A stretch of DNA of 32,000 bases from Candidatus Heimdallarchaeota archaeon (GTDB lineage Archaea; Asgardarchaeota; Heimdallarchaeia; Heimdallarchaeales; Heimdallarchaeaceae), in contig DAOVER010000011.1 of the NCBI GenBank assembly GCA_030668875.1, positions 1 to 32,000 of the forward strand, in the 5' to 3' direction. Shown piece by piece: positions 14,008-25,390 of this stretch. The notes beneath the pieces were generated by a model, which worked only from the letters and a program-made list of their open reading frames with translations, did not search any database and was not told the origin of the DNA. The stretch's first letter is position 1. Each line of letters starts with the position of its first letter. Position numbers and translations under genes: made by a program.

Positions 14008-15792
14008 TTAGCTAAGTAGCTCCTCCAATTTATCTATTTGACTTGTAAGATAATTTATGCCCTTTTTCCAGAAGGTTGGATCATTCAAGTCAACTCCAAT
14101 TTCAGAAAGCATCTGTTCAGGTGTTAAAGAAGTTCCAACAGAAAGTAGTTTGACAAATTTTGGTTTGAACTCATCTTTCTCTTCTAGATACATTTGGTAT
14201 AGTGCAATAACAAGCAAGTTTGCCATATTATATGCATAAACATAGAATGGAACATGGATGAAGTGCGATACTACAAAACAATAAATTTCATAATCTTCCT
14301 TAATATTGCTTACAGAATTACCAAACATTTTTTCCATTTCTTCTACATAGATTTCTTTGTAATCTTGTGTAGAAGGTAGTTTTGTTTTCGTTAATTCATG
14401 TACTCTTCTCTCAAATTGGTAGAAAGCATTCTGTCTATGAGAAGTAGAGAAGTTACCTTCAATATGATTACATAACAAAGCTATCCTTTCATCTTTAGAT
14501 AGATCTTGCTCCATCAGATAATCAAAAGCTAAAATTTCATTGAAAACTGAAGCTATTTCAGCCACAGCAAGAGATGAACCAATATTAGTGAAAGTTTGAT
14601 TTTGTTGTATATGATAGTGATGTAGAGCATGTCCAAGTTCATGAGCAAGAGTAAGTACAGATTCAATATCTCCTGTGAAATTGACGAAAACAAAAGGATA
14701 CTGTGTTTGTCTTCCATAACTACAGAAAGCTCCACCTGTCTTTCCTTTTCTTGGAGTTACATCAATATGTTTGAGATCGTACAGTTTCTGAATAATCTCT
14801 TTGAATTCAGGCAAAAATCTTTCATTTACTACCTTAACTAATTCTATAGCTTCCTCGTAAGTATACTTTTTACCAATTTCTCCTACAGGAGCATAGATAT
14901 CAGACATTCTTAATTCGTCTAAGCCTATTACTTTCTTTTTCAAATTATAGTATCGTTCAACTATTGAATTGCTATCTGAAGTTACATCTCCTAAGGTTTC
15001 AACTATTTTATCACTTATCTCATTATCAAAATTCCTTCTTGAGATTGATTTTTCATAGTTCTTTCTCTTTGTTTCAAGATCCCAATCTTTCAGAACATTA
15101 TTGTAAATATGAGTGAAAATTAGTTCATTTTCTTTGAATTTTGAAACAAAGGTTTGTAGAGCTCTATATCTCACATCTTTGTCCTTATGATACATGAAAG
15201 CAAAGAGTTCAGAACCAGTCATTTCTTTCTTTTCTCCATCTACTTCGAATTCATACATGAAACCGCTTTCTATTTCATCGTAAAGTTTTGTAAAACCACC
15301 ACTTCCTGTTAGATCTTTCATCATAATGATTTGCTCTTCTTTTTCAGAAAGCTGATGATCTTTCTTTAATCTATTAAATTCTAAAGCGTGACGAAAATTA
15401 GATAATTCTGTTGAGTTTAAGAATTCTTGATATTTCTCTTCGGAAATTAGATTAAGTTCAAGTTCAAAAAAGATAACCGTTTCTCTTATTTTAACAGAGA
15501 ACTCTTCTACTTTTGCTTTTAATTCTTTTACTTCATCATCTAATGAAGTAGTTGAGTAGATTAATCCTGCGAATAGGCTTAGATAGAACATTCTCTCAAA
15601 TATTTCTTCTAATGCTATATACCATTCTTTCAATTGTTCTGGTTTAAGGGATGCATCTACTAGATTACCCTTTGCTTCAGAATTAAACTTTCTAGCAAGT
15701 TTTTCGATATTCTTCATATCTTCTTCGATTTTTGGGTCATCTATTCCTTTGTATAAGTTTGATAGATCCCATTCTAAAATTTGCTTAGACAT
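14008..15792 (-). CDS. pepF: Oligoendopeptidase F (peptidase M3B)
   Basis: 594 aa. WDLSNLY start, GKTGGAFC, zinc motif TLAHELGHALH, AEIASVFNE, HFIHVPFYVYAY. Confidence 0.95.
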   Translation of the reverse strand: MSKQILEWDLSNLYKGIDDPKIEEDMKNIEKLARKFNSEAKGNLVDASLKPEQLKEWYIALEEIFERMFYLSLFAGLIYSTTSLDDEVKELKAKVEEFSVKIRETVIFFELELNLISEEKYQEFLNSTELSNFRHALEFNRLKKDHQLSEKEEQIIMMKDLTGSGGFTKLYDEIESGFMYEFEVDGEKKEMTGSELFAFMYHKDKDVRYRALQTFVSKFKENELIFTHIYNNVLKDWDLETKRKNYEKSISRRNFDNEISDKIVETLGDVTSDSNSIVERYYNLKKKVIGLDELRMSDIYAPVGEIGKKYTYEEAIELVKVVNERFLPEFKEIIQKLYDLKHIDVTPRKGKTGGAFCSYGRQTQYPFVFVNFTGDIESVLTLAHELGHALHHYHIQQNQTFTNIGSSLAVAEIASVFNEILAFDYLMEQDLSKDERIALLCNHIEGNFSTSHRQNAFYQFERRVHELTKTKLPSTQDYKEIYVEEMEKMFGNSVSNIKEDYEIYCFVVSHFIHVPFYVYAYNMANLLVIALYQMYLEEKDEFKPKFVKLLSVGTSLTPEQMLSEIGVDLNDPTFWKKGINYLTSQIDKLEELLS

Positions 15793-15989: not shown

Positions 15990-17825
15990 ATGGAAAGTAC
16001 AGTCACTAAAAACAGTTTCAAATTGTTACCCTTTCTAATACTAGTTATTATTAACACATCAATTATAACGACTGCATGTCTAGGTGAATCAATACCACTT
16101 GGTCCAGGTAATTTAGCATTCAGTATTGATATATTAGCTCTTAACCAACAAGAGCATGCAGGAATCCACAAAATATCTGAAGTATTAGCAGAAAATCTAC
16201 CGAAGATTGGAATAGGAATAAATATTATTGAATTAACTACTAAGGATAGAATTGCAGAAAGAACATGGAGCTATCCAATTGGATTTGAACATGGTTATTT
16301 ACCACCGTATAGTGAAGGTGGTTTTGATGTTGTTTTGAGGGAAATTAAGTGGAATCTTGATTATACTTATGAAGGACATTTTGACAGCGGTAGTATTCCA
16401 CCTAATGGATTAAATTACTATCAATATATTAACCCCAAGTATGATGATGATCTCAACTCCTTTCTAAACGAAAGTGACCCAACAACTAGAACTGCATATT
16501 TTCTTGCACTTGACCGTCTATTATATGACGAATTGCCATCAATTGCCATTTGCTATCCTCGAACTGTTTATAGTCTCAAAGATTCTGTATCTGGTTTTGA
16601 GTTGGAATTACTTAACACAAATCAACATCGATTAGAGAATTGGGAAAACTCTGATGGTTATACTTTGAACTATGGTTTTAGGGAGAAATTATCAGGAACC
16701 AGTATATTTAATGAGAATTCTATTGGTGATTCTTTTTGGACACAAGCAGTCTATGGTTCTTTATATACAAGAACTAAACATTATGAAGATTGGATACCAA
16801 TGATTGCAAATAATACAATTGTTAGTGCTAAAAACAATGGGAAAATGAATATAACAGTAGGTATGGATCGGTTGGCGAAATTTAGTGATGGTAGTCAAGT
16901 TCTATCTGAGGATGTGAAATATAGCTATGAATTACTGTTGAATACTTCACATAGTTCTAGTCAACAATTTAATTATGCAAAATGTTTCCAATTGATAGAG
17001 TCTATTTCTATTATAGATAATTATACGCTTCAATTTAATCTGAACAAAATATATTTTTCACCATGTAAGATTCTTAGTTTAGGGATATTAGATAAATCAA
17101 GAGTTGAACCCTTAGTCGATACTTTTGGTTATGAAATATTCGAGGAACTACCTGGAACCTTTGATGTACAATATGATCTGGTAACTTCTTGTGGTCCTTA
17201 TAAGCTTGATTTATTAGATTTAGATCAGAATTTATTTAATTTATCTCCTAATCCATACTGGAATAATTTATCATTCTCTAATGGAATACAACCTCATCTT
17301 TTGTCACTTAATAGTTCTTATATTTCGAGCGATCAAGAAGGTATTGAAAAACTAGAATTAGGTGTTATAGATTTTATAGAATTGAAAGACTACATCATTC
17401 CTGACTTAAAAACAGGTTATACAAATGAATTATCTATTGATCGTGTAACTATTGAATTAGGTCTCAATATGATGCATCCTGTTTTTGGTACTGGAGAGCT
17501 TACACCTGTTGGGACAGGTGAATCTGCAATAAATATTCGAAAAGGTATAAGCCATGCAATTCCTCGAGATGATATAATAACGGATATTCTATTGGGTTTA
17601 GGTGTACCAGGAGTTGCTCCTTATTCGATGTATCGATGGGATGAAATTATGCCATATGCATATGATCTTGATTTAGCTCGATCTTATCTGGAAATGGCTA
17701 GTTATGGACCACTTTGTATAATACCAGAAGAAATAGGGTCAAATTACATGTTACTTATAATGATTTTTGGATTAGTCACAACAGTAATTATTTGCAAAAG
17801 AAAGAAAAATAATGAGAAAAGATGA
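15990..17825 (+). CDS. Family-5 (OppA/DppA/NikA-like) extracellular solute-binding protein, circularly permuted, C-terminally membrane-anchored
   Basis: Signal peptide; AKFSDGSQVLSEDVKYSY, IESISIIDNYTLQFNL, SCGPYKL, PNPYWN, IRKGISHAIPRDDI, YDLDLARSYL and ELPSIAICY are family-5 motifs; C-terminal TM plus KRKK. Confidence 0.85.
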   Translation: MESTVTKNSFKLLPFLILVIINTSIITTACLGESIPLGPGNLAFSIDILALNQQEHAGIHKISEVLAENLPKIGIGINIIELTTKDRIAERTWSYPIGFEHGYLPPYSEGGFDVVLREIKWNLDYTYEGHFDSGSIPPNGLNYYQYINPKYDDDLNSFLNESDPTTRTAYFLALDRLLYDELPSIAICYPRTVYSLKDSVSGFELELLNTNQHRLENWENSDGYTLNYGFREKLSGTSIFNENSIGDSFWTQAVYGSLYTRTKHYEDWIPMIANNTIVSAKNNGKMNITVGMDRLAKFSDGSQVLSEDVKYSYELLLNTSHSSSQQFNYAKCFQLIESISIIDNYTLQFNLNKIYFSPCKILSLGILDKSRVEPLVDTFGYEIFEELPGTFDVQYDLVTSCGPYKLDLLDLDQNLFNLSPNPYWNNLSFSNGIQPHLLSLNSSYISSDQEGIEKLELGVIDFIELKDYIIPDLKTGYTNELSIDRVTIELGLNMMHPVFGTGELTPVGTGESAINIRKGISHAIPRDDIITDILLGLGVPGVAPYSMYRWDEIMPYAYDLDLARSYLEMASYGPLCIIPEEIGSNYMLLIMIFGLVTTVIICKRKKNNEKR

Positions 17826-18406
17826 ATGAAGAAGTTGCTGCAATAAATGAATAGAACAATCATAAAAAACAGTTTCAAATTATTACCCTTTCTAATATTG
17901 TTTATAGTAAACACTTCAATCATAAGTACTTCAAACACATCAAATCCAGTGCAAATAGCATTCAGTATTGATTTACTAACTCTTAATCTAAACGAGCATT
18001 CAGCAATTCCAAGAATAGCTGGATTATTATCAGAAAACCTTCCAAAGATTGGAGTAGGGATAAACATTGTTGAGCATACTACCAGCGATAATATAGCTGA
18101 AAGAACATGGAATTATCCGATTGGAAGGGATTACGATTATATACCTACTTATGCTGAAGGTGGATATGACATTGTTTTGAGGGAAGTTGCGTGGGATTTT
18201 GACCATGATCATGAAGGATATTTTGACAGTGAGAGCATTGTTCCAAATGGATTAAATTACTATCAATATAATAATATCATTTATGATAATTATCTTAACT
18301 TTTTTTTGAATCAAACTTATTATGAGGGATATGAATATCTATTTGAACTTGTTACTATTTTATATGACGAATTACCCTCAATTGCCATTTGCTATCCTCG
18401 AACTGT
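16539..18406 (+). repeat. Dispersed direct repeats from the tandem SBP duplication (example: a 29-nt exact match)
   Basis: TCAATTGCCATTTGCTATCCTCGAACTGT occurs at both 16539-16567 and 18378-18406. Also, 17525-17567 and 19361-19403 match at 42 of 43 nt. Confidence 0.9.
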
Positions 18407-19652
18407 ATTTAGTCTAAAAAATACAGTATCTGGTATTGATTGGGCATTACTTACTGTTAATCAACATCGCATAGAGAATTGGGGAAACTCTGATGGACAT
18501 ATTATCAACTTTGGTTTTAGGGAGAAGTTATCAGGAACTAATATCTTCAAACAGAATTCAAGGGGTGATTCTACTTGGACACAAGCAGTTTATGGTTCTC
18601 TCTATACAAGAAACCAATATGAAGAATGGGTACCAATGATTGCTAATAGTACCTTCATTAAATCAAAACTCGATGGAAAAATGAATATCACTGTAGGCAT
18701 TGACCAACTAGCCAAATTCAGTGATGGTAGTCAAGTTCTATCGGAGGACGTGAAATATAGTTATGATTTACATTTAAATTCATCATTAGTTTCGAATCAA
18801 CTAATCAACTTTGCGAAATGTTTCCAATCAATTGAGTCTATTTCAATTGTAGACAATTATACTATCCAATTTAATCTAGACAGAATCTATAATTCACCAC
18901 ATAAGGTTCTAAGTTTAGGAATAGTCGATAAATCAAGAATTGAGCCCTTGATAGATGCTTTTGGTTACGCAATATTCGATGAACTACCCGGAACATATGA
19001 TGTACAGTATGATCTGGTAACATCTTGTGGTCCCTACATACTTGATTCATTAGATTTAGATCTGAATTTATTCAATTTATCTCCTAATCCATATTGGAAT
19101 AATTTAACCTTCTCTAATGGGATTCAACCTCACCTTCTATCACTGAATGGCACTTATGTTTCGAACGACCAAGAAGGTATTGAAAAACTACAATCAGGTG
19201 TTATAGATGTTATAAAGCTAAAAGCCTACATTCTTCCTGACTTGATAACAGGTTATTCAAATATTGAATCTAAAGCCCCCATATCTATTGAACTAGGTGT
19301 CAATATGAAACATCCAGTAATAGGGACAGGAGAGCTTACACCACTTGGAACTAGAGAATATGCAATAAATATTCGAAAAGGTATAAGTCATGCAATTCCT
19401 CGAAATTATATTGTAGATGAGATTCTAATGGGCTTAGGAGTACCAGCAAGTATCCAATATCCTGACCCAGAAATTGTATTTAGTTATTTTGAACCTTATA
19501 CATATGATCTTGATTTAGCTCGTTCTTATGTGGGATCGGTAGGTAGAAAGCCAAATCCCCCAACACCTTCATCTTCAGGTTCCTATATAATTATCTTAAC
19601 TACGTTCTTTGCTATAGTAACAACTTCAATAATAATAAAGAAAAAAAGGTAG
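17847..19652 (+). CDS. Family-5 solute-binding protein, circularly permuted; tandem paralog of 15990-17825
   Basis: Same motif order as the upstream gene and long near-identical DNA blocks. Ends in a Pro/Ser linker (KPNPPTPSSSGS), a TM helix and KKKR. Confidence 0.85.
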   Translation: MNRTIIKNSFKLLPFLILFIVNTSIISTSNTSNPVQIAFSIDLLTLNLNEHSAIPRIAGLLSENLPKIGVGINIVEHTTSDNIAERTWNYPIGRDYDYIPTYAEGGYDIVLREVAWDFDHDHEGYFDSESIVPNGLNYYQYNNIIYDNYLNFFLNQTYYEGYEYLFELVTILYDELPSIAICYPRTVFSLKNTVSGIDWALLTVNQHRIENWGNSDGHIINFGFREKLSGTNIFKQNSRGDSTWTQAVYGSLYTRNQYEEWVPMIANSTFIKSKLDGKMNITVGIDQLAKFSDGSQVLSEDVKYSYDLHLNSSLVSNQLINFAKCFQSIESISIVDNYTIQFNLDRIYNSPHKVLSLGIVDKSRIEPLIDAFGYAIFDELPGTYDVQYDLVTSCGPYILDSLDLDLNLFNLSPNPYWNNLTFSNGIQPHLLSLNGTYVSNDQEGIEKLQSGVIDVIKLKAYILPDLITGYSNIESKAPISIELGVNMKHPVIGTGELTPLGTREYAINIRKGISHAIPRNYIVDEILMGLGVPASIQYPDPEIVFSYFEPYTYDLDLARSYVGSVGRKPNPPTPSSSGSYIIILTTFFAIVTTSIIIKKKR

Positions 19653-19662
19653 AAATCATGAA

Positions 19663-21015
19663 TTAAGAAGTAGCTGCAGTTATGTTAATATCTTCAAGCA
19701 AAACAGCAGGTATGAATGTTGGTGTATTTACTTCCCAGCTTTTTATTTGTTTTAGGTCCTTACCCAATGCTTTGATATTCCCAAAAATGTTAAACATAGT
19801 GTCACTTACTCTTAATTCTCTAACTGGTTTTGAGATTTCACCGTTCTCTATTATGAACATTCCATCTCTAGGAATAGTTGAGAATATCCCATCTGCATAA
19901 CTAGTAAATCTTGTATACCAGTTATTAGTAAGGTAAATTGTTGGTTTGCCTTTGGATATTTCCATTAATTCATCAAATGAATGATCACCAGGTTCAAAGA
20001 ATACATTGGTATTCTGTGGGAAAACAAGCCCAGCATTTCCTGTACTTACTGTTCCTGCTTTTTTAGCTGTTGATGTGTTGTGAATGAAACCTTTCAAAAT
20101 ACCATTCTCAACTAAAACATTCCTACCAGTTGGATGACCTTCATCATCAAACGATCTTGATCCTAGACCATTCGGAAGAAGAGCATCATCATAAACTGAA
20201 ACGAATTCGGGACCTATCTGTTCTCCAATTTTATCTTTTAACCAAGAAAATCCTATCTCTACAGAAAATGGATTAGCAGCTACAGGTGTTGCTGCAACAA
20301 TATCACCAGCTACCTTAGGAGCTAGAATGACATTATATTTCCCAGGTGAGCCATTTACTCCTCCAACTGACATTTTAGCTATTTTTCCTGCTTTTCTTCC
20401 TGCTTCTTCTAAATCAATCCTTGAAGATAATCGTCCAACATCTATTTCTGCTCCCGAACTAGTATCATCAATGAAGGAACGAATTGTATATTCATATTTG
20501 GTTGAATGCGCTTTTGCTCTAGCTCCTCTTGAGGAAACAAGCTGGACTTTTGTTGCATCCCAGTAAAGCACTCCTGCAGATCTTTTCGCTCCTTCTTCTT
20601 GAGCTGCATTGATCGAAGCTGTCACCTTATCGAGAGCTTGTTCGTGGAAATCTATTAGATCTGGATCGCTTAATTCATCAATAGATGGATAACTAAATGG
20701 ACCATCGGATATTCCCATGTAATTCTGATTTGGAGGTAATGAGGAGACAAGCTTATCGAGAGAATCAATAGATGATAAAATTGTTTCAGATGTTAAGTCT
20801 TGGAGATCAACAGCAACTGTTTTTTGATTTTTAACTGCAAAAACACCTAAATTCATAGAAGCCCAATTCTTGACAATTGTTATTTGATTATCAGCAAATC
20901 TAATTTGTGACTTATTGCTTTTTTCTGTCTGTAAAATATAATCTTCAAAACCTAACTCTTGGAGTTTCTTTATTGTTAAATCCATAACATTTTCAGTATC
21001 TAATTTATCTACCAT
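19663..21015 (-). CDS. pmbA: TldE/PmbA family protein (non-catalytic partner of TldD)
   Basis: QIRFADNQIT, GKYNVILAP, VYDDALLPNGLGSRSFDDEGHPT, LVENGILKGF, STGNAG and IENGEI..PV; lacks HExxxH. ATG 21015 has AGGTGA upstream; the ORF track start GTG 21024 overlaps the tldD stop. Confidence 0.9.
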   Translation of the reverse strand: MVDKLDTENVMDLTIKKLQELGFEDYILQTEKSNKSQIRFADNQITIVKNWASMNLGVFAVKNQKTVAVDLQDLTSETILSSIDSLDKLVSSLPPNQNYMGISDGPFSYPSIDELSDPDLIDFHEQALDKVTASINAAQEEGAKRSAGVLYWDATKVQLVSSRGARAKAHSTKYEYTIRSFIDDTSSGAEIDVGRLSSRIDLEEAGRKAGKIAKMSVGGVNGSPGKYNVILAPKVAGDIVAATPVAANPFSVEIGFSWLKDKIGEQIGPEFVSVYDDALLPNGLGSRSFDDEGHPTGRNVLVENGILKGFIHNTSTAKKAGTVSTGNAGLVFPQNTNVFFEPGDHSFDELMEISKGKPTIYLTNNWYTRFTSYADGIFSTIPRDGMFIIENGEISKPVRELRVSDTMFNIFGNIKALGKDLKQIKSWEVNTPTFIPAVLLEDINITAATS

Positions 21016-21020
21016 TACTC

Positions 21021-22469
21021 TCACCTAACCTCCACATTACGAATACGCATGAATGAACCACCATGATAAACAGGTGCGCCCTGCATTGGATCACCTTTGC
21101 CACAAGTAGCAGCGTCAAATTCTAGCAAACTCTTCTTAGCAACTGCATCAACTGAGCCCCATAGTTTGGGAGTTGTAGTTTCAACTACAGGTCTTCTCAC
21201 CATGTGTTTAACTTCACCATTCTCGATTAGATATGCTTCTAATCCTACATACTTGGATTGATATCGTCTGTCATCAATATTCCACTCTGTAAAGTTGTGC
21301 ATCAAGACACCAAGTTTAACGTCCTCTATCAATTCCTCTAATTCGAAATCACCTGGCAACAGATAGGTATTAGCCATTCTAGGGATTGGTTCACGGTTAT
21401 AACCTATTGCTCGAGCTGCTGCTGTACTCTTTGTTTGCATGAAAGCAGCTGATTCTCTATTATGAAGCATATCCTGAAAAATACCTTCCTTTAAGAGATA
21501 TCTTGGTCCGGCCTTTATTCCTTCATCGTCATATTGATAATAACCATAAGAACCTAATAATGAAGGATCATCTATTATTGTAACTTTATCAGAACCTATT
21601 TTTTCACCAATCATGTCTTGTTTAAGATAGCTTTCACCTGCTTGAGCACCTTCTCTTCCTAATATCCTATCTCCTTCAGATGGATGCCCTTGATTCTCAT
21701 GACACATTATACCAATAACATTCGGACCAACTACATAATCTATTGTTCCTTTTGGAGCTTCCTTTGCTTCAGTAACTATTTTTCCCAATGTTCTAACTTG
21801 TTTCTCTATATAATCTTCAATTTTCCAGAAATCTAATGCTTCATACCCACCAGCTTTTCCTTTTTGTATCATTAACTGCTCTTTTGAGCCCGTAGTGGGG
21901 TTTACTGCCACAATCAATCCAAAGAGTTGTAGAAGGTCAGTTTCGCTCTCTATCCTTGCTCCTTCATTAGTTATAATCAATTTCTTTTCTGTTTGATCTA
22001 ACATTTGAAAGAAACGGAACGGTATGATTGCACCAGTTTCTACTTCAGCTGCAATTTTATCTAGATTGATTAATCTGTTAATTTTCTCTTCAGGAGATAA
22101 TTCTAAAGGTCTTTTTCCACTTTGACCAATAGCTTGATAGGTTGCTATGTGAATTTCCTCTTCACTAAACGATATTTTCTTTGTTCGCATATTTCCGCTT
22201 GCTTCAGCCATTTTAGTTGCGAAAGTTACTGCTATATTCATCTCTTCTTTCGTCATCTCATTAAAACTAGCGAATCCTACTCCACCGTCTTTCAGTACTC
22301 TTATTCCAATACCCTTGCTTCTCATTATAGCTCCGAGTTCAGGAACTCCACTTTTCAGAATACTAGTGTTGCTTTTCAAATCAACTAAGCGTGCTTCAAT
22401 ATACTGAGCACCAAGTTTCTCTCCCTTCTCTATTGCTTTTTCAACCAGATCAATTGGTTCTGCAGTCAT
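21021..22469 (-). CDS. tldD: TldD metalloprotease
   Basis: GIGIRV..DGGVGFAS, intact metal motif CHENQGHPSEGDR, YDDEG, IPRMANT and C-terminal CGKGDP...PVYHGG. Confidence 0.93.
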   Translation of the reverse strand: MTAEPIDLVEKAIEKGEKLGAQYIEARLVDLKSNTSILKSGVPELGAIMRSKGIGIRVLKDGGVGFASFNEMTKEEMNIAVTFATKMAEASGNMRTKKISFSEEEIHIATYQAIGQSGKRPLELSPEEKINRLINLDKIAAEVETGAIIPFRFFQMLDQTEKKLIITNEGARIESETDLLQLFGLIVAVNPTTGSKEQLMIQKGKAGGYEALDFWKIEDYIEKQVRTLGKIVTEAKEAPKGTIDYVVGPNVIGIMCHENQGHPSEGDRILGREGAQAGESYLKQDMIGEKIGSDKVTIIDDPSLLGSYGYYQYDDEGIKAGPRYLLKEGIFQDMLHNRESAAFMQTKSTAAARAIGYNREPIPRMANTYLLPGDFELEELIEDVKLGVLMHNFTEWNIDDRRYQSKYVGLEAYLIENGEVKHMVRRPVVETTTPKLWGSVDAVAKKSLLEFDAATCGKGDPMQGAPVYHGGSFMRIRNVEVR

Positions 22470-22543: not shown

Positions 22544-23449
22544 TTATCTTACAGATTCTAATTCAATTTGATATTCAACAAATTCCTTAACTAAATTCGC
22601 TACATCCCTTCCATTTTCGAACAATAAGTCATGTTTGGAATCAGGTAGTATTGCTAATCTCGAGTTAGGTAATAGTTCTCGCAGTTTCATTGAATCTTTA
22701 ACAGAAGTAAGATGATCTTTTTCCCCTACCATAAGTAAAATCGGAGTTTCTAACTTCTTAAGTTCTTCATCTTTATCCCAAGCATATACTGTATTCAGTA
22801 AACTTTGTCTAAAAACATGATATGGCATACTCTTACGTTGTTCTTTTATGATGTTGATATACTTTGGATTAACTGAATCTGATGTAATGATATTCATTAC
22901 TACATGCAAAAGAATATTTTTCACTCTTTCATCCATTCTGTAAAACATTAAAGGAAGCATTCTTGGAAATGGTTCTCTGAAATTAGGTGCACTTGAAAGC
23001 ACTACCGCTGCTTTTGCTCTTTCTGGTTTTAAGCATAGATAGTTTTGAACTATTGCTGACCCCATAGAATGCCCAATTAAGATTAGATTCTTTGGATTGA
23101 AATAATCCACAATTTGTGCTAATTCCTCTGTAAATAATCCTAGATCATAAGAATCTGAGTCAACATCTGAAAAACCATGACCTTTCATATCATAAGCTAT
23201 GATTCTAAAATGAGATCCTAACATTTTTAGTAGATAACTGTAAATTATGCTACTTGAACCCCACCCATGAGCACAAATTATTGTATAATCATATGTAGGA
23301 TTTTCGTTTATATCTACGTAACTAATAGTATAACTTGAACCATTTCTTTGTATCGTTAACTTAGCTCTTTTTTCTGAGAATGGATCGACCATTACCAAAT
23401 CCTCCATTTCCAGTTTAGATGATCTATTTAGTGATAGCATATGGCTCAA
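22544..23449 (-). CDS. Alpha/beta-fold hydrolase
   Basis: AHGWGSS oxyanion loop, YDMKGHGFS, nucleophile elbow GHSMG, GEKD acid and a C-terminal His (SKHDL). About 50-aa N-terminal extension. Start is TTG 23449 or ATG 23440. Confidence 0.9.
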   Translation of the reverse strand: MSHMLSLNRSSKLEMEDLVMVDPFSEKRAKLTIQRNGSSYTISYVDINENPTYDYTIICAHGWGSSSIIYSYLLKMLGSHFRIIAYDMKGHGFSDVDSDSYDLGLFTEELAQIVDYFNPKNLILIGHSMGSAIVQNYLCLKPERAKAAVVLSSAPNFREPFPRMLPLMFYRMDERVKNILLHVVMNIITSDSVNPKYINIIKEQRKSMPYHVFRQSLLNTVYAWDKDEELKKLETPILLMVGEKDHLTSVKDSMKLRELLPNSRLAILPDSKHDLLFENGRDVANLVKEFVEYQIELESVR

Positions 23450-23551: not shown

Positions 23552-25390
23552 TTAGAGTGATTTTTCAAAGAAATCTGACAGCATTTTGAATAAAGTTTTT
23601 TGATTCTTTACTTTCACAATTCCATGACCTTCATCTTCGAAAATATACTCCTCATAATCTATTTTGTGTTCTTCTAGATTCTTCCTAACTTCCTCTACAT
23701 TCTTTGGAGAAACATTGGGATCTCGTCTTCCTTGAATAATTAGTAATTTACCTTTAATATCCTGAACAAAGTTAATGGGTGAGCGTTCAAAATATATATC
23801 TGGCACTTCTGTTGGAGTGCCACCCATCATTTCAGCTGAAAGAGGTTTTAAATCAGGTCTTGTTGTATCGTAATCAATCTCCAGATCAGTCATACCACAA
23901 ATGGGTGCTGAAGCCGCGATGATATCAAATGGAGCTTTTGTTATCCCAAACCAAGCTGAGTACCCCCCATAGCTTGTTCCAGTTATGCCAACCTTACCAC
24001 TTACAGCTGTTCCTTGTGATATAAGTGCTCTAATACCTGAAAGAATATCCTCCTGTTCATCAGCTCCCCACCCTCTGTCTCGTATCGAATCTTCAAAGGT
24101 AATCCCATAGCCAGTTGAACCTCTATAATTTGGATCAAGAACTGTAAAACCTAATTTAGTATAATACTGGATTTGAGAATTAATAGCATCTTCAGAATGG
24201 GCAGTAGGGCCACCATGCACGTATATTATTGTTTTTTCATTCGATTTTTTAGGTTTGTACAACCAACCATGCACATTAACACCATCATGAGATTTCCAGT
24301 CAAAATCTTCAGCAGCAGTCAAATCACTTTTTTGTAATTTTGTTTGTTTCCAAACATAAGTAAGTGATTTGAAATTAACAGGGTTTATGGAATCAATATT
24401 GAATTTAATAATATCATCTGGTTGAGTTGAAGAATAATATTTGCCGATCCAATCCTTAGAATTTAAGGGGGCAATTGGATAATAATTTCCTGATATTCTA
24501 GGTAATTTCGTTTCTTGCAAGGTTTCCACGTTAATAATTGAAACTCTTTTTTTTGCTTTTTCATATTCTGATACAAAGAAATAATTACCAATTCGGGGAA
24601 CAGAAAAATCTTCAATACTTCGTAATGGATCATCGATTACCCATGTGATTTCTTCGGATTCGACATTGTAAATACCAAGGGAGTAATGTTTCTGTTCTAT
24701 GTTATCTTTTGTATCGGTAAGAAACACTATTCTCTTACTATCAGACAACCAAGATGCAAATACTCTTGCCTTCTCACCGAAATTTAATATCTCTCTGTCT
24801 TGATTACCATCTATATCCACAATCCACTTTTGTTCTCCTTTAGGATGGTACTCTTTTCTGCTATATAGTATGTTCTGCCCATTTTTTGATAAATCAGGGA
24901 ATAACCATGTTGGTTTACTAGGTTTTGCTAAACATATCATCTCATCAGTTTCTAAATTGTGTTTGTAAATGTAAGTAGGTTCAATTTCCTTTTTATCTGT
25001 TAAGGAATAATTAGCTCCATATATCAACCATTTCTCACTTGGATGAATTCTCCCTCCTCTCAAGAAGAATGGAGGGTTTTCCATGGTTAATGGAATCATC
25101 TCGAGCGGATTATCTAGATTAATTCTAAACAATCTAACTCTTTCATTTCTACTCTTATCTTCTCCAACCAAAACAGCCTTACTCTTTGGATAGAAATATC
25201 TAACTATTGACATTTCTGGGGTATTTGATAGAGCTATAGGGTTGGAACTACCATCTGTAGGAACATAGAATACATCAATGTTAGGATTGATATTTCTCCA
25301 TGAATAGGCTAAATACTTCCCATCAGGGGAAATTTGAGGTGAATAAATAAAAGGTATTGTAAGCAAATCATCTAAATAATCTTCCTTCAT
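23552..25390 (-). CDS. S9 family (prolyl oligopeptidase/acylaminoacyl-peptidase-like) serine peptidase
   Basis: N-terminal beta-propeller (PQISPDGKYLAY); catalytic domain with VHGGP, NYRGSTGYG, GTSYGG, QGRRDPNV and EDEGHG, so the Ser-Asp-His triad is intact. Confidence 0.93.
   Translation of the reverse strand: MKEDYLDDLLTIPFIYSPQISPDGKYLAYSWRNINPNIDVFYVPTDGSSNPIALSNTPEMSIVRYFYPKSKAVLVGEDKSRNERVRLFRINLDNPLEMIPLTMENPPFFLRGGRIHPSEKWLIYGANYSLTDKKEIEPTYIYKHNLETDEMICLAKPSKPTWLFPDLSKNGQNILYSRKEYHPKGEQKWIVDIDGNQDREILNFGEKARVFASWLSDSKRIVFLTDTKDNIEQKHYSLGIYNVESEEITWVIDDPLRSIEDFSVPRIGNYFFVSEYEKAKKRVSIINVETLQETKLPRISGNYYPIAPLNSKDWIGKYYSSTQPDDIIKFNIDSINPVNFKSLTYVWKQTKLQKSDLTAAEDFDWKSHDGVNVHGWLYKPKKSNEKTIIYVHGGPTAHSEDAINSQIQYYTKLGFTVLDPNYRGSTGYGITFEDSIRDRGWGADEQEDILSGIRALISQGTAVSGKVGITGTSYGGYSAWFGITKAPFDIIAASAPICGMTDLEIDYDTTRPDLKPLSAEMMGGTPTEVPDIYFERSPINFVQDIKGKLLIIQGRRDPNVSPKNVEEVRKNLEEHKIDYEEYIFEDEGHGIVKVKNQKTLFKMLSDFFEKSL

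Follow-up and report, generated by a model that had tools for sequence, protein, structure and literature searches.

Positions 15,990 to 19,652 of the DNA analysed herein (the window, i.e. the whole stretch of 32,000 nt covering positions 1 to 32,000 of contig DAOVER010000011.1 of the Candidatus Heimdallarchaeota archaeon assembly GCA_030668875.1) raise the question of how two adjacent genes, SBP1 and SBP2 (proteins P0001 and P0002, respectively), come to encode the motifs of OppA/DppA-type solute-binding proteins (SBPs) in a rearranged order, and what role such proteins might serve. A first-pass annotation of the locus had proposed that both proteins are circular permutants, in which the canonical C-terminal third precedes the canonical N-terminus. 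All of the motifs that it quoted are found in both proteins and in the order given, its coordinates are correct (including the conversion of residues 44 and 224 to nt 16119 and 16659), and the permutation is real, as demonstrated by swapped two-part profile matches and supported by two AlphaFold2 (AF2) models, which yield the same mapping.

Segment order and predicted fold of SBP1 and SBP2

Both proteins are members of cluster C of the SBPs (SBP_bac_5, PF00496) that fail to follow the canonical N-to-C order, which is retained by all of the solved cluster C structures retrieved. P0001 and P0002 match PF00496 with 93.5 and 83.8 bits, respectively (cut-off 32.4), with the match limited to a stretch that begins at about residue 296 or 262 and ends at about residue 573, equivalent to profile positions 3/27 to 281 of 368; the remaining part of the profile lies upstream in the chain. 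Taken alone, the first 220 residues return no Pfam match, and a scan with NCBIfam models produces only split matches below threshold and no match to a C-terminal sorting-signal model. Comparison of P0001 with PDB sequences aligns residues 55–203 to positions 353–493 of GsiB/YliB, and residues 252–572 to positions 32–341 of several chains. Similarly, a family profile spanning the junction (A2, residues 1–340) matches 92 PDB sequences, typically as two order-swapped pieces that are each significant alone; for example, profile positions 101–192 align with 6i3g 383–471 (independent E-value 2e-8), and positions 235–316 with 8efz 32–112 (independent E-value 3e-7). Against Escherichia coli DppA, in precursor numbering, the hidden Markov model (HMM) of the second block aligns with residues 44–368 (E-value 8e-31) and that of the first block with residues 417–519 (E-value 3e-9). 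The two swapped high-scoring segment pairs that had been predicted against PF00496 and DppA are therefore obtained, and the swapped segment order of both SBPs is far beyond chance.

Structural predictions display the same arrangement. The AF2 model of P0001, generated from an alignment of 56 sequences, has a mean predicted local distance difference test score (pLDDT) of 86.6 and a predicted template modelling score (pTM) of 0.81, with low confidence confined to the signal region, the tether and the tail. Amongst the 1,000 best PDB chains for this model, no solved SBP aligns with it collinearly along the whole length, and the best rows cover only model residues 217–576, such that the collinear match to OppA/DppA that had been named as the outcome contradicting a permutation did not occur. 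When folded alone, the N-block (P0001 38–224; pLDDT 86, pTM 0.69) maps to the C-terminal ~170 residues of these SBPs, up to the final residue, in all 50 rows listed, including 1dpp (336–507 of 507), 1ola (354–517 of 517) and 1uqw (310–489), with modest Z-scores of 6.2–7.2. P0001 residues 38–221 thus correspond to DppA 336–507 and residues 224–574 to DppA 1–342, with gaps of no more than about 6 residues and without overlap, i.e. two homologous segments in reversed order that cover the fold once. As the mappings of the two blocks meet in this way, the chain represents one copy of the fold cut near residue ~340 of mature DppA.

A second predictor is in agreement, with the ESM-Atlas representative of a Heimdall cluster superposing on the P0001 model with template modelling (TM) scores of 0.81/0.85 over 526 residues. 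Collinear AFDB entries reach TM scores, normalized by query, of 0.57–0.71 over residues ~40–572, versus no more than 0.41 for canonical PDB chains. Independent predictors therefore concur on the overall arrangement at the level of models, and the models themselves are bilobed, contain the extra N-lobe sub-domain and can be superposed on DppA/OppA. From these predictions we infer that the three-dimensional fold, and hence the Venus-flytrap cleft, is canonical. The cut, herein termed site A, lies in a surface loop of the C-lobe after the 'YD..A..LL..AGY' helix (around mature DppA residue 340), whilst the old termini are joined by 3–5 residues that follow the invariant W218. The predicted chain would accordingly run from a signal sequence into the normal last third (most of the C-lobe and the strand returning to the N-lobe), and, via the joint of 3–5 residues, to the normal N-terminus, through the N-lobe and into the C-lobe up to the '...AGY' helix, before some 8 residues lead to a transmembrane helix with a basic tail. 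Since the mappings place the cut sites within C-lobe surface loops, both hinge crossings would be kept, with the chain crossing between the lobes twice.

The features of the two genes are collated in Table 1. SBP1 and SBP2 are 66 % identical and co-oriented, with the SBP2 start positioned 21 nt past the SBP1 stop. Placement of the SBP1 joint follows from the block HMMs, which end at residue 214 and resume at 226, and from the VIA ranges, which stop at 221 and begin at 217–224. An open reading frame (ORF) of 107 aa on the opposite strand (17744–18067) overlaps both SBP genes and is without support.

Table 1. Coordinates within the window of the tandem SBP genes and of their parts
Feature	Position (nt)	Strand	Residues	Description and basis
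SBP1 gene (P0001)	15990..17825	+	611 aa	Permuted family-5 solute-binding protein; PF00496 93.5 bits, residues 296–573 only
SBP1 putative N-terminal signal sequence/hydrophobic segment	15990..16094	+	1–35	Hydrophobic 8–34; hydropathy scan; low-confidence model helix 9–30
SBP1 N-block	16101..16652	+	38–221	Canonical C-terminal third, DppA mature 336–507
SBP1 permutation joint N-S-D-G-Y-T	16644..16661	+	219–224	Old C-terminus (after invariant W218) to old N-terminus
SBP1 C-block	16659..17711	+	224–574	Canonical N-terminal two-thirds, DppA mature 1–342
SBP1 C-terminal transmembrane anchor	17733..17807	+	582–606	Followed by basic tail KRKKNNEKR; hydropathy scan; model helix 583–610
SBP2 gene (P0002)	17847..19652	+	601 aa	Tandem paralog, permuted like SBP1; PF00496 on residues 262–570 only
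SBP2 N-block	17952..18473	+	36–209	Canonical C-terminal third; Nblk HMM 2–173, 214 bits
SBP2 C-block	18501..19550	+	219–568	Canonical N-terminal two-thirds; Cblk HMM 1–350, 458 bits
SBP2 C-terminal transmembrane anchor	19578..19646	+	578–600	Basic tail KKKR, P/S-rich linker before; hydropathy scan

Conservation and origin of the permuted form

With regard to the source genome (a 92 % complete draft in 99 contigs), a PF00496 scan identifies 17 loci, only one of which, on contig C3, is collinear with the profile (2–343). At least five others (C17, C19, C22, C26 and C53) display a match to profile positions ~290–356 upstream of a match to positions ~28–281 within the same ORF, and in total about 16 permuted paralogs are present. 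These form two subfamilies: I, with 4–5 genes including SBP1 and SBP2, and II, which is more divergent and contains at least 10. The nearest relatives of SBP1 and SBP2 are proteins from Heimdallarchaeota metagenome-assembled genomes (MAGs), as well as from the closed genomes of Ca. Heimdallarchaeum aukensis and Ca. H. endolithica. Subfamily II has 309 database relatives, the best 120 of which are nearly all full length, with those that are named belonging to Heimdallarchaeota. An exhaustive profile search with a junction-spanning alignment returned 214 cluster representatives at E ≤ 1e-30, and amongst the proteins retrieved 157 are permuted versus 31 in canonical order. A sample of 150 genomes of the phylum contains matches across the junction in families f1 (11 of 12 genomes), f5, f6, f10, f16 and f17, with families f2–f4, which belong to the same order as the source genome, possessing the two pieces in canonical order. 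A search for related loci with alignment A1 returned 78 named loci, all from Asgard MAGs, and the source labels of the permuted proteins include Thorarchaeota, 'Promethearchaeota', Hodarchaeales and, for the P0061 cluster, Bathyarchaeota. The permuted form is thus the common, indeed standard, one across Asgard archaea, representing a conserved group rather than a one-off. Of the 'distinct permuted clade' that had been suggested for these proteins, the large conserved group is upheld, but the clade itself requires qualification, given that in the best tree a canonical-order clade nests amongst the permuted lineages and that a second cut site exists (see below).

Beyond Asgard archaea, fold matches were obtained to a Bathyarchaeota cluster and a Bacillota cluster (TM score 0.64) of the Atlas, and to AFDB accessions with prefixes that suggest haloarchaea or Thermococcus. 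These model-based matches may represent permuted relatives in further archaeal groups and in Bacillota. A homologue labelled 'Zixibacteria' (P0060; contig DATKYH010000043.1 of GCA_035528535.1) was rejected as evidence of a bacterial host, as an Arf/Ras-type GTPase and a Sec23/24-trunk protein are encoded beside the permuted SBP; the contig is most likely that of a mis-binned Asgard archaeon. Two paralogs of the source genome stand apart. A 341-aa protein (G000:C22:51578-52603, − strand) is hydrophobic at both ends, matches only positions 188–350 of the C-block HMM and, judged by its sequence, appears to be a shortened relative of the permuted SBPs with a single lobe. The sole canonical-order family-5 SBP (G000:C3:31375-33471, − strand) harbours only an N-terminal anchor, and its relatives are mostly Chloroflexota proteins at 42–46 % identity, which suggests inter-domain transfer.

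Such breadth also bears on whether the swapped order could simply be an artefact, i.e. a mis-assembly or the fusion of two partial SBP genes in what is a metagenome-assembled draft of 99 contigs. No point in support of this was found in the analysis, and its probability is negligible: the same order occurs in intact frame in two adjacent paralogs, in about 16 paralogs of the genome, in the closed genomes CP084166 and CP084167, and in more than 100 independent assemblies, with the two blocks forming exactly one copy of the fold with neither overlap nor missing parts. The artefact is for practical purposes refuted; the permutation is a genuine feature, of ancient date and conserved.

As to its origin, several relatives depart from the arrangement of SBP1 and SBP2. 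A second cut site, B, is positioned ~65 residues earlier than A, within a family-specific loop of the 'GTGELTPVGT' type that immediately precedes the 'IRKA..AIPR' helix. P0193 (Hodarchaeales, 1555 aa) contains a single cut-B unit, a long region of right-handed parallel beta-helix and a C-terminal anchor, whilst P0147 and P0153 are tandem doubles of the cut-B unit. P0156 (Thorarchaeota) is likewise a tandem double, with an end of the cut-A type followed by Asp-rich repeats, and a 1536-aa ORF (G062:C170:37456-40077) provides a further example. Such doubles, found in MAGs of Loki- and Thor-type Asgard archaea, span 1,200–1,700 aa in the order C-third, N-part, C-third, N-part, and are the intermediates expected from permutation by duplication. 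As natural tandem doubles and a second cut site (P0193) both exist, the permutation would have arisen via tandem duplication and fusion, with subsequent trimming of the ends.

For phylogenetic trees, units were re-ordered in silico to a common order, and the root was placed on the Chloroflexota-like canonical paralog (C3 and its relatives). The best trees position subfamily II at the base and unite the canonical-order proteins in one clade (support 99) nested amongst permuted lineages, meaning that at least two changes of order are needed. A tree constrained to place all canonical-order proteins (the outgroup and the canonical clade) on the same side of one branch is worse by 16.2 log-likelihood units and yields a p-value of 0.15 in the approximately unbiased (AU) test, so that a single permutation event is not rejected. 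The narrower range of the canonical order, which is confined to f2–f4, weakly favours a return to it. We tentatively entertain, at somewhat less than even odds, a history in which the termini moved repeatedly via tandem fusions, from an ancient cut A, with a shift to B (P0193, P0147 and P0153) and a canonical return in f2–f4; if true, nature would have preserved in these shifts several successive steps of permutation by duplication, linked to receptor tethering. A D.DGDG loop at cut A in the canonical-order relatives, which resembles the first stalk repeat of P0096, P0117 and P0156, was considered as a 'scar' of such a reversion and was rejected, because ordinary family-5 SBPs often possess a similar 'AGW..D.DGDG' loop at this position.

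Membrane anchor, probable transport role and ligand

Hydropathy scans reveal that nearly all permuted copies begin with a hydrophobic signal segment and end in a transmembrane helix with a basic tail. Were the N-terminal segment retained, the protein would be held in the membrane by both ends, which, as products of a single cut loop, would be expected to lie near one another. The tether between the end of the fold and this helix has a median length of 8 residues in permuted proteins (interquartile range 6–10, n=118), compared with 19 residues in canonical-order relatives (interquartile range 12–25, maximum 101, n=23). The first-pass annotation had the anchor leaving the fold at a new point, and this is borne out, in that the exit is the C-lobe loop after the '...AGY' helix rather than the canonical C-terminus; beyond what had been proposed, the tether is much reduced in length. 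The observed part of the explanation advanced here comprises the swapped order, the conservation of that order and this anchor design. In P0096, P0117, P0200 and P0156 the short tether is replaced, ahead of the transmembrane helix, by an Asp-rich DxDxDG stalk resembling thrombospondin type 3 calcium-binding repeats.

With regard to function, we consider it likely that both genes encode membrane-tethered, extracytoplasmic, permuted SBPs of the OppA/DppA class that feed Opp-type ATP-binding cassette (ABC) translocators, probably with peptides. Judged from sequence and gene context, the proteins are most likely ABC-importer receptors, the kind of function being unchanged. SBP1 and SBP2 would pass their ligand to Opp-type translocators encoded elsewhere, with many paralogs sharing few translocators. 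The source genome possesses two complete oppBCDF operons (on C38 and C52), neither of which has a family-5 SBP gene beside it. Two closed genomes of family f17, G012 and G023, encode a permuted SBP (675 and 677 aa, respectively) divergently beside oppB-oppC-oppD-oppF, with permeases that look ordinary. This arrangement in other Asgard genomes indicates that ordinary ABC importers are most likely still fed. Since ordinary-looking opp operons adjoin and the hinge crossings are intact, conventional docking to the permease is the simpler reading; the new tether point may alter docking, as had been suspected, a notion that is neither supported nor excluded by the present data.

The ligand is probably a peptide, to judge from the gene neighbourhood and from one conserved motif. 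Flanking the SBP genes, all on the − strand, are genes for an M3 oligoendopeptidase F (14008–15792) and a PmbA/TldD pair (19663–21024 and 21021–22469), followed, again on the − strand, by those for an S33-like alpha/beta hydrolase (22544–23449) and an S9 prolyl-oligopeptidase-family protein (23552–25390). This run of peptidase genes suggests a peptide-scavenging neighbourhood. In DppA, D436 binds the amino group of the peptide and R383 the carboxylate of the dipeptide, such that the two residues hold the ligand and also contact the scoop loop of DppB (PMC12136057). Both reside in the segment that now forms the N-terminal block, and a conserved W121-x-x-D124 (Asp/Glu in 54 of 56 sequences) registers with DppA W433-x-x-D436. 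The peptidase flanks and this register together point weakly towards a peptide ligand. Three observations weigh against the proposed role: there is no permease gene near SBP1, SBP2 or any of the ~16 paralogs in the source genome; alignment to DppA reveals no evident equivalent of R383 in the permuted family; and the ligands of family-5 SBPs extend to nickel complexes, sugars and opines, with the nearest PDB sequences being a mixture of such binders.

Orphan status of this kind, which applies to all ~16 paralogs of the source genome and likewise to the subfamily I copies scanned in closed f1 genomes, would also suit proteins that act outside transport, i.e. stand-alone surface receptors (for sensing, adhesion or the capture of peptides for surface proteolysis) in which the fold serves as a membrane-held binding module. 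The very large number of copies set against only two Opp translocators favours such a role, as do the long extensions of relatives, which comprise thrombospondin-type-3-like Asp-rich repeats in P0096, P0117 and P0156 and a parallel beta-helix in P0193. It is nevertheless improbable, given that the permuted copies of G012 and G023 adjoin complete oppBCDF operons, that the Opp operons of the source genome lack an SBP of their own and so need one from elsewhere, and that orphan SBPs sharing one translocator are common among Opp systems. If transport is accepted, the substrate could still be something other than a peptide, with the proteins serving as ABC-importer binding proteins for oligosaccharides, nickel or other metal chelates, or opine-like compounds. 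NikZ and NikA are amongst the best sequence matches, sugars are frequent ligands of family-5 SBPs from archaea and Thermotoga (PDB matches 4pft, 1vr5 and 2o7i), and the lack of an evident R383 equivalent is in line with this reading; the abundance of peptidase genes in the neighbourhood and the Asp conserved at the position that binds the peptide amine speak for peptides instead, although neither argument is strong. Such ligands are accordingly a possibility to which we would assign a minor share, and peptide uptake through Opp-type translocators is retained as the favoured role of SBP1 and SBP2.

Comparison with known binding proteins

In canonical cluster C SBPs (DppA, 1dpp/1dpe/8z1z; OppA, 1ola/3tcf; GsiB, 1uqw; NikZ, 4oet/8efz; Bacillus subtilis AppA, 1xoc) the chain is unpermuted, whilst in SBP1 and SBP2 the termini lie in a C-lobe loop, rather than in the N-lobe, and a tether of ~8 residues leads to a C-terminal transmembrane anchor. 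A further difference is a conserved 12-residue insertion (GTGELTPVGT) not present in DppA. Close relatives in canonical order occur in the sister Asgard families f2–f4 (P0119, P0120, P0133 and others); these belong to the same subfamily (Cblk 250–275 bits, Nblk 166–179 bits) and share the signal sequence, the C-terminal transmembrane anchor and the GTG..TP loop, but differ in their normal chain order and in a longer, often S/T-rich, tether. Surface tethering as such is a known archaeal design for this class: oligopeptide-class SBPs of Sulfolobus solfataricus and Aeropyrum pernix, receptors of ABC importers, likewise combine a Sec-type signal with a C-terminal transmembrane anchor (PMC3387779). 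Unlike these proteins, in which a Ser/Thr-rich glycosylated stalk precedes the anchor, the permuted SBPs have a very short tether and leave the fold at another point.

A full-text search of a literature library revealed no account of a permuted SBP of cluster C. Nearest amongst the natural permutants described is Treponema pallidum Tp0684/TpMglB-2 ('Cluster Bc'), a permuted sugar-binding lipoprotein of cluster B that binds its ligand and closes, and for which a link between permuted topology and tethering was proposed by its authors (PMC4990184). It is an analogue and not a relative, as there is no sequence relationship and SBP1 and SBP2 match only cluster C family-5 proteins. The topological outcome also differs, with the permutation of TpMglB-2 moving three N-lobe strands and adding a fourth hinge crossing, whereas the cut described here falls within the C-lobe and leaves the crossings unchanged.

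The permuted SBPs bear on questions of both transport and protein evolution. Few transport receptors have been studied as thoroughly as those of cluster C, which also find wide use as biosensor scaffolds, and the acceptance of new termini in two C-lobe loops reveals a tolerance of the fold at sites that could serve for engineered insertions or tethers. For evolutionary study, tandem doubles that persist today, together with cut site B, allow the permutation-by-duplication model to be examined in nature. Archaea lack a periplasm, and the very short C-lobe tether raises the question of how a receptor pinned to the surface reaches its translocator. In practical terms, Pfam and NCBIfam models cover only ~60 % of the permuted SBPs, so that domain annotation and length filters misread them.

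Some minor observations concern the sequencing data and the Opp operons. The runs listed with this DNA are four marine-sediment DNA runs of one study, from which it may originate, with no RNA run amongst them. In the source genome, the OppB-type permease on C38 (G000:C38:12445-14241, − strand) is contained within an 872-aa ORF, a length far above the usual that implies a large extra domain. In G012, the gene directly after oppF of the operon beside the permuted SBP encodes a HEAT-repeat protein that also contains a RING-finger domain (L015:8853-9851, + strand).

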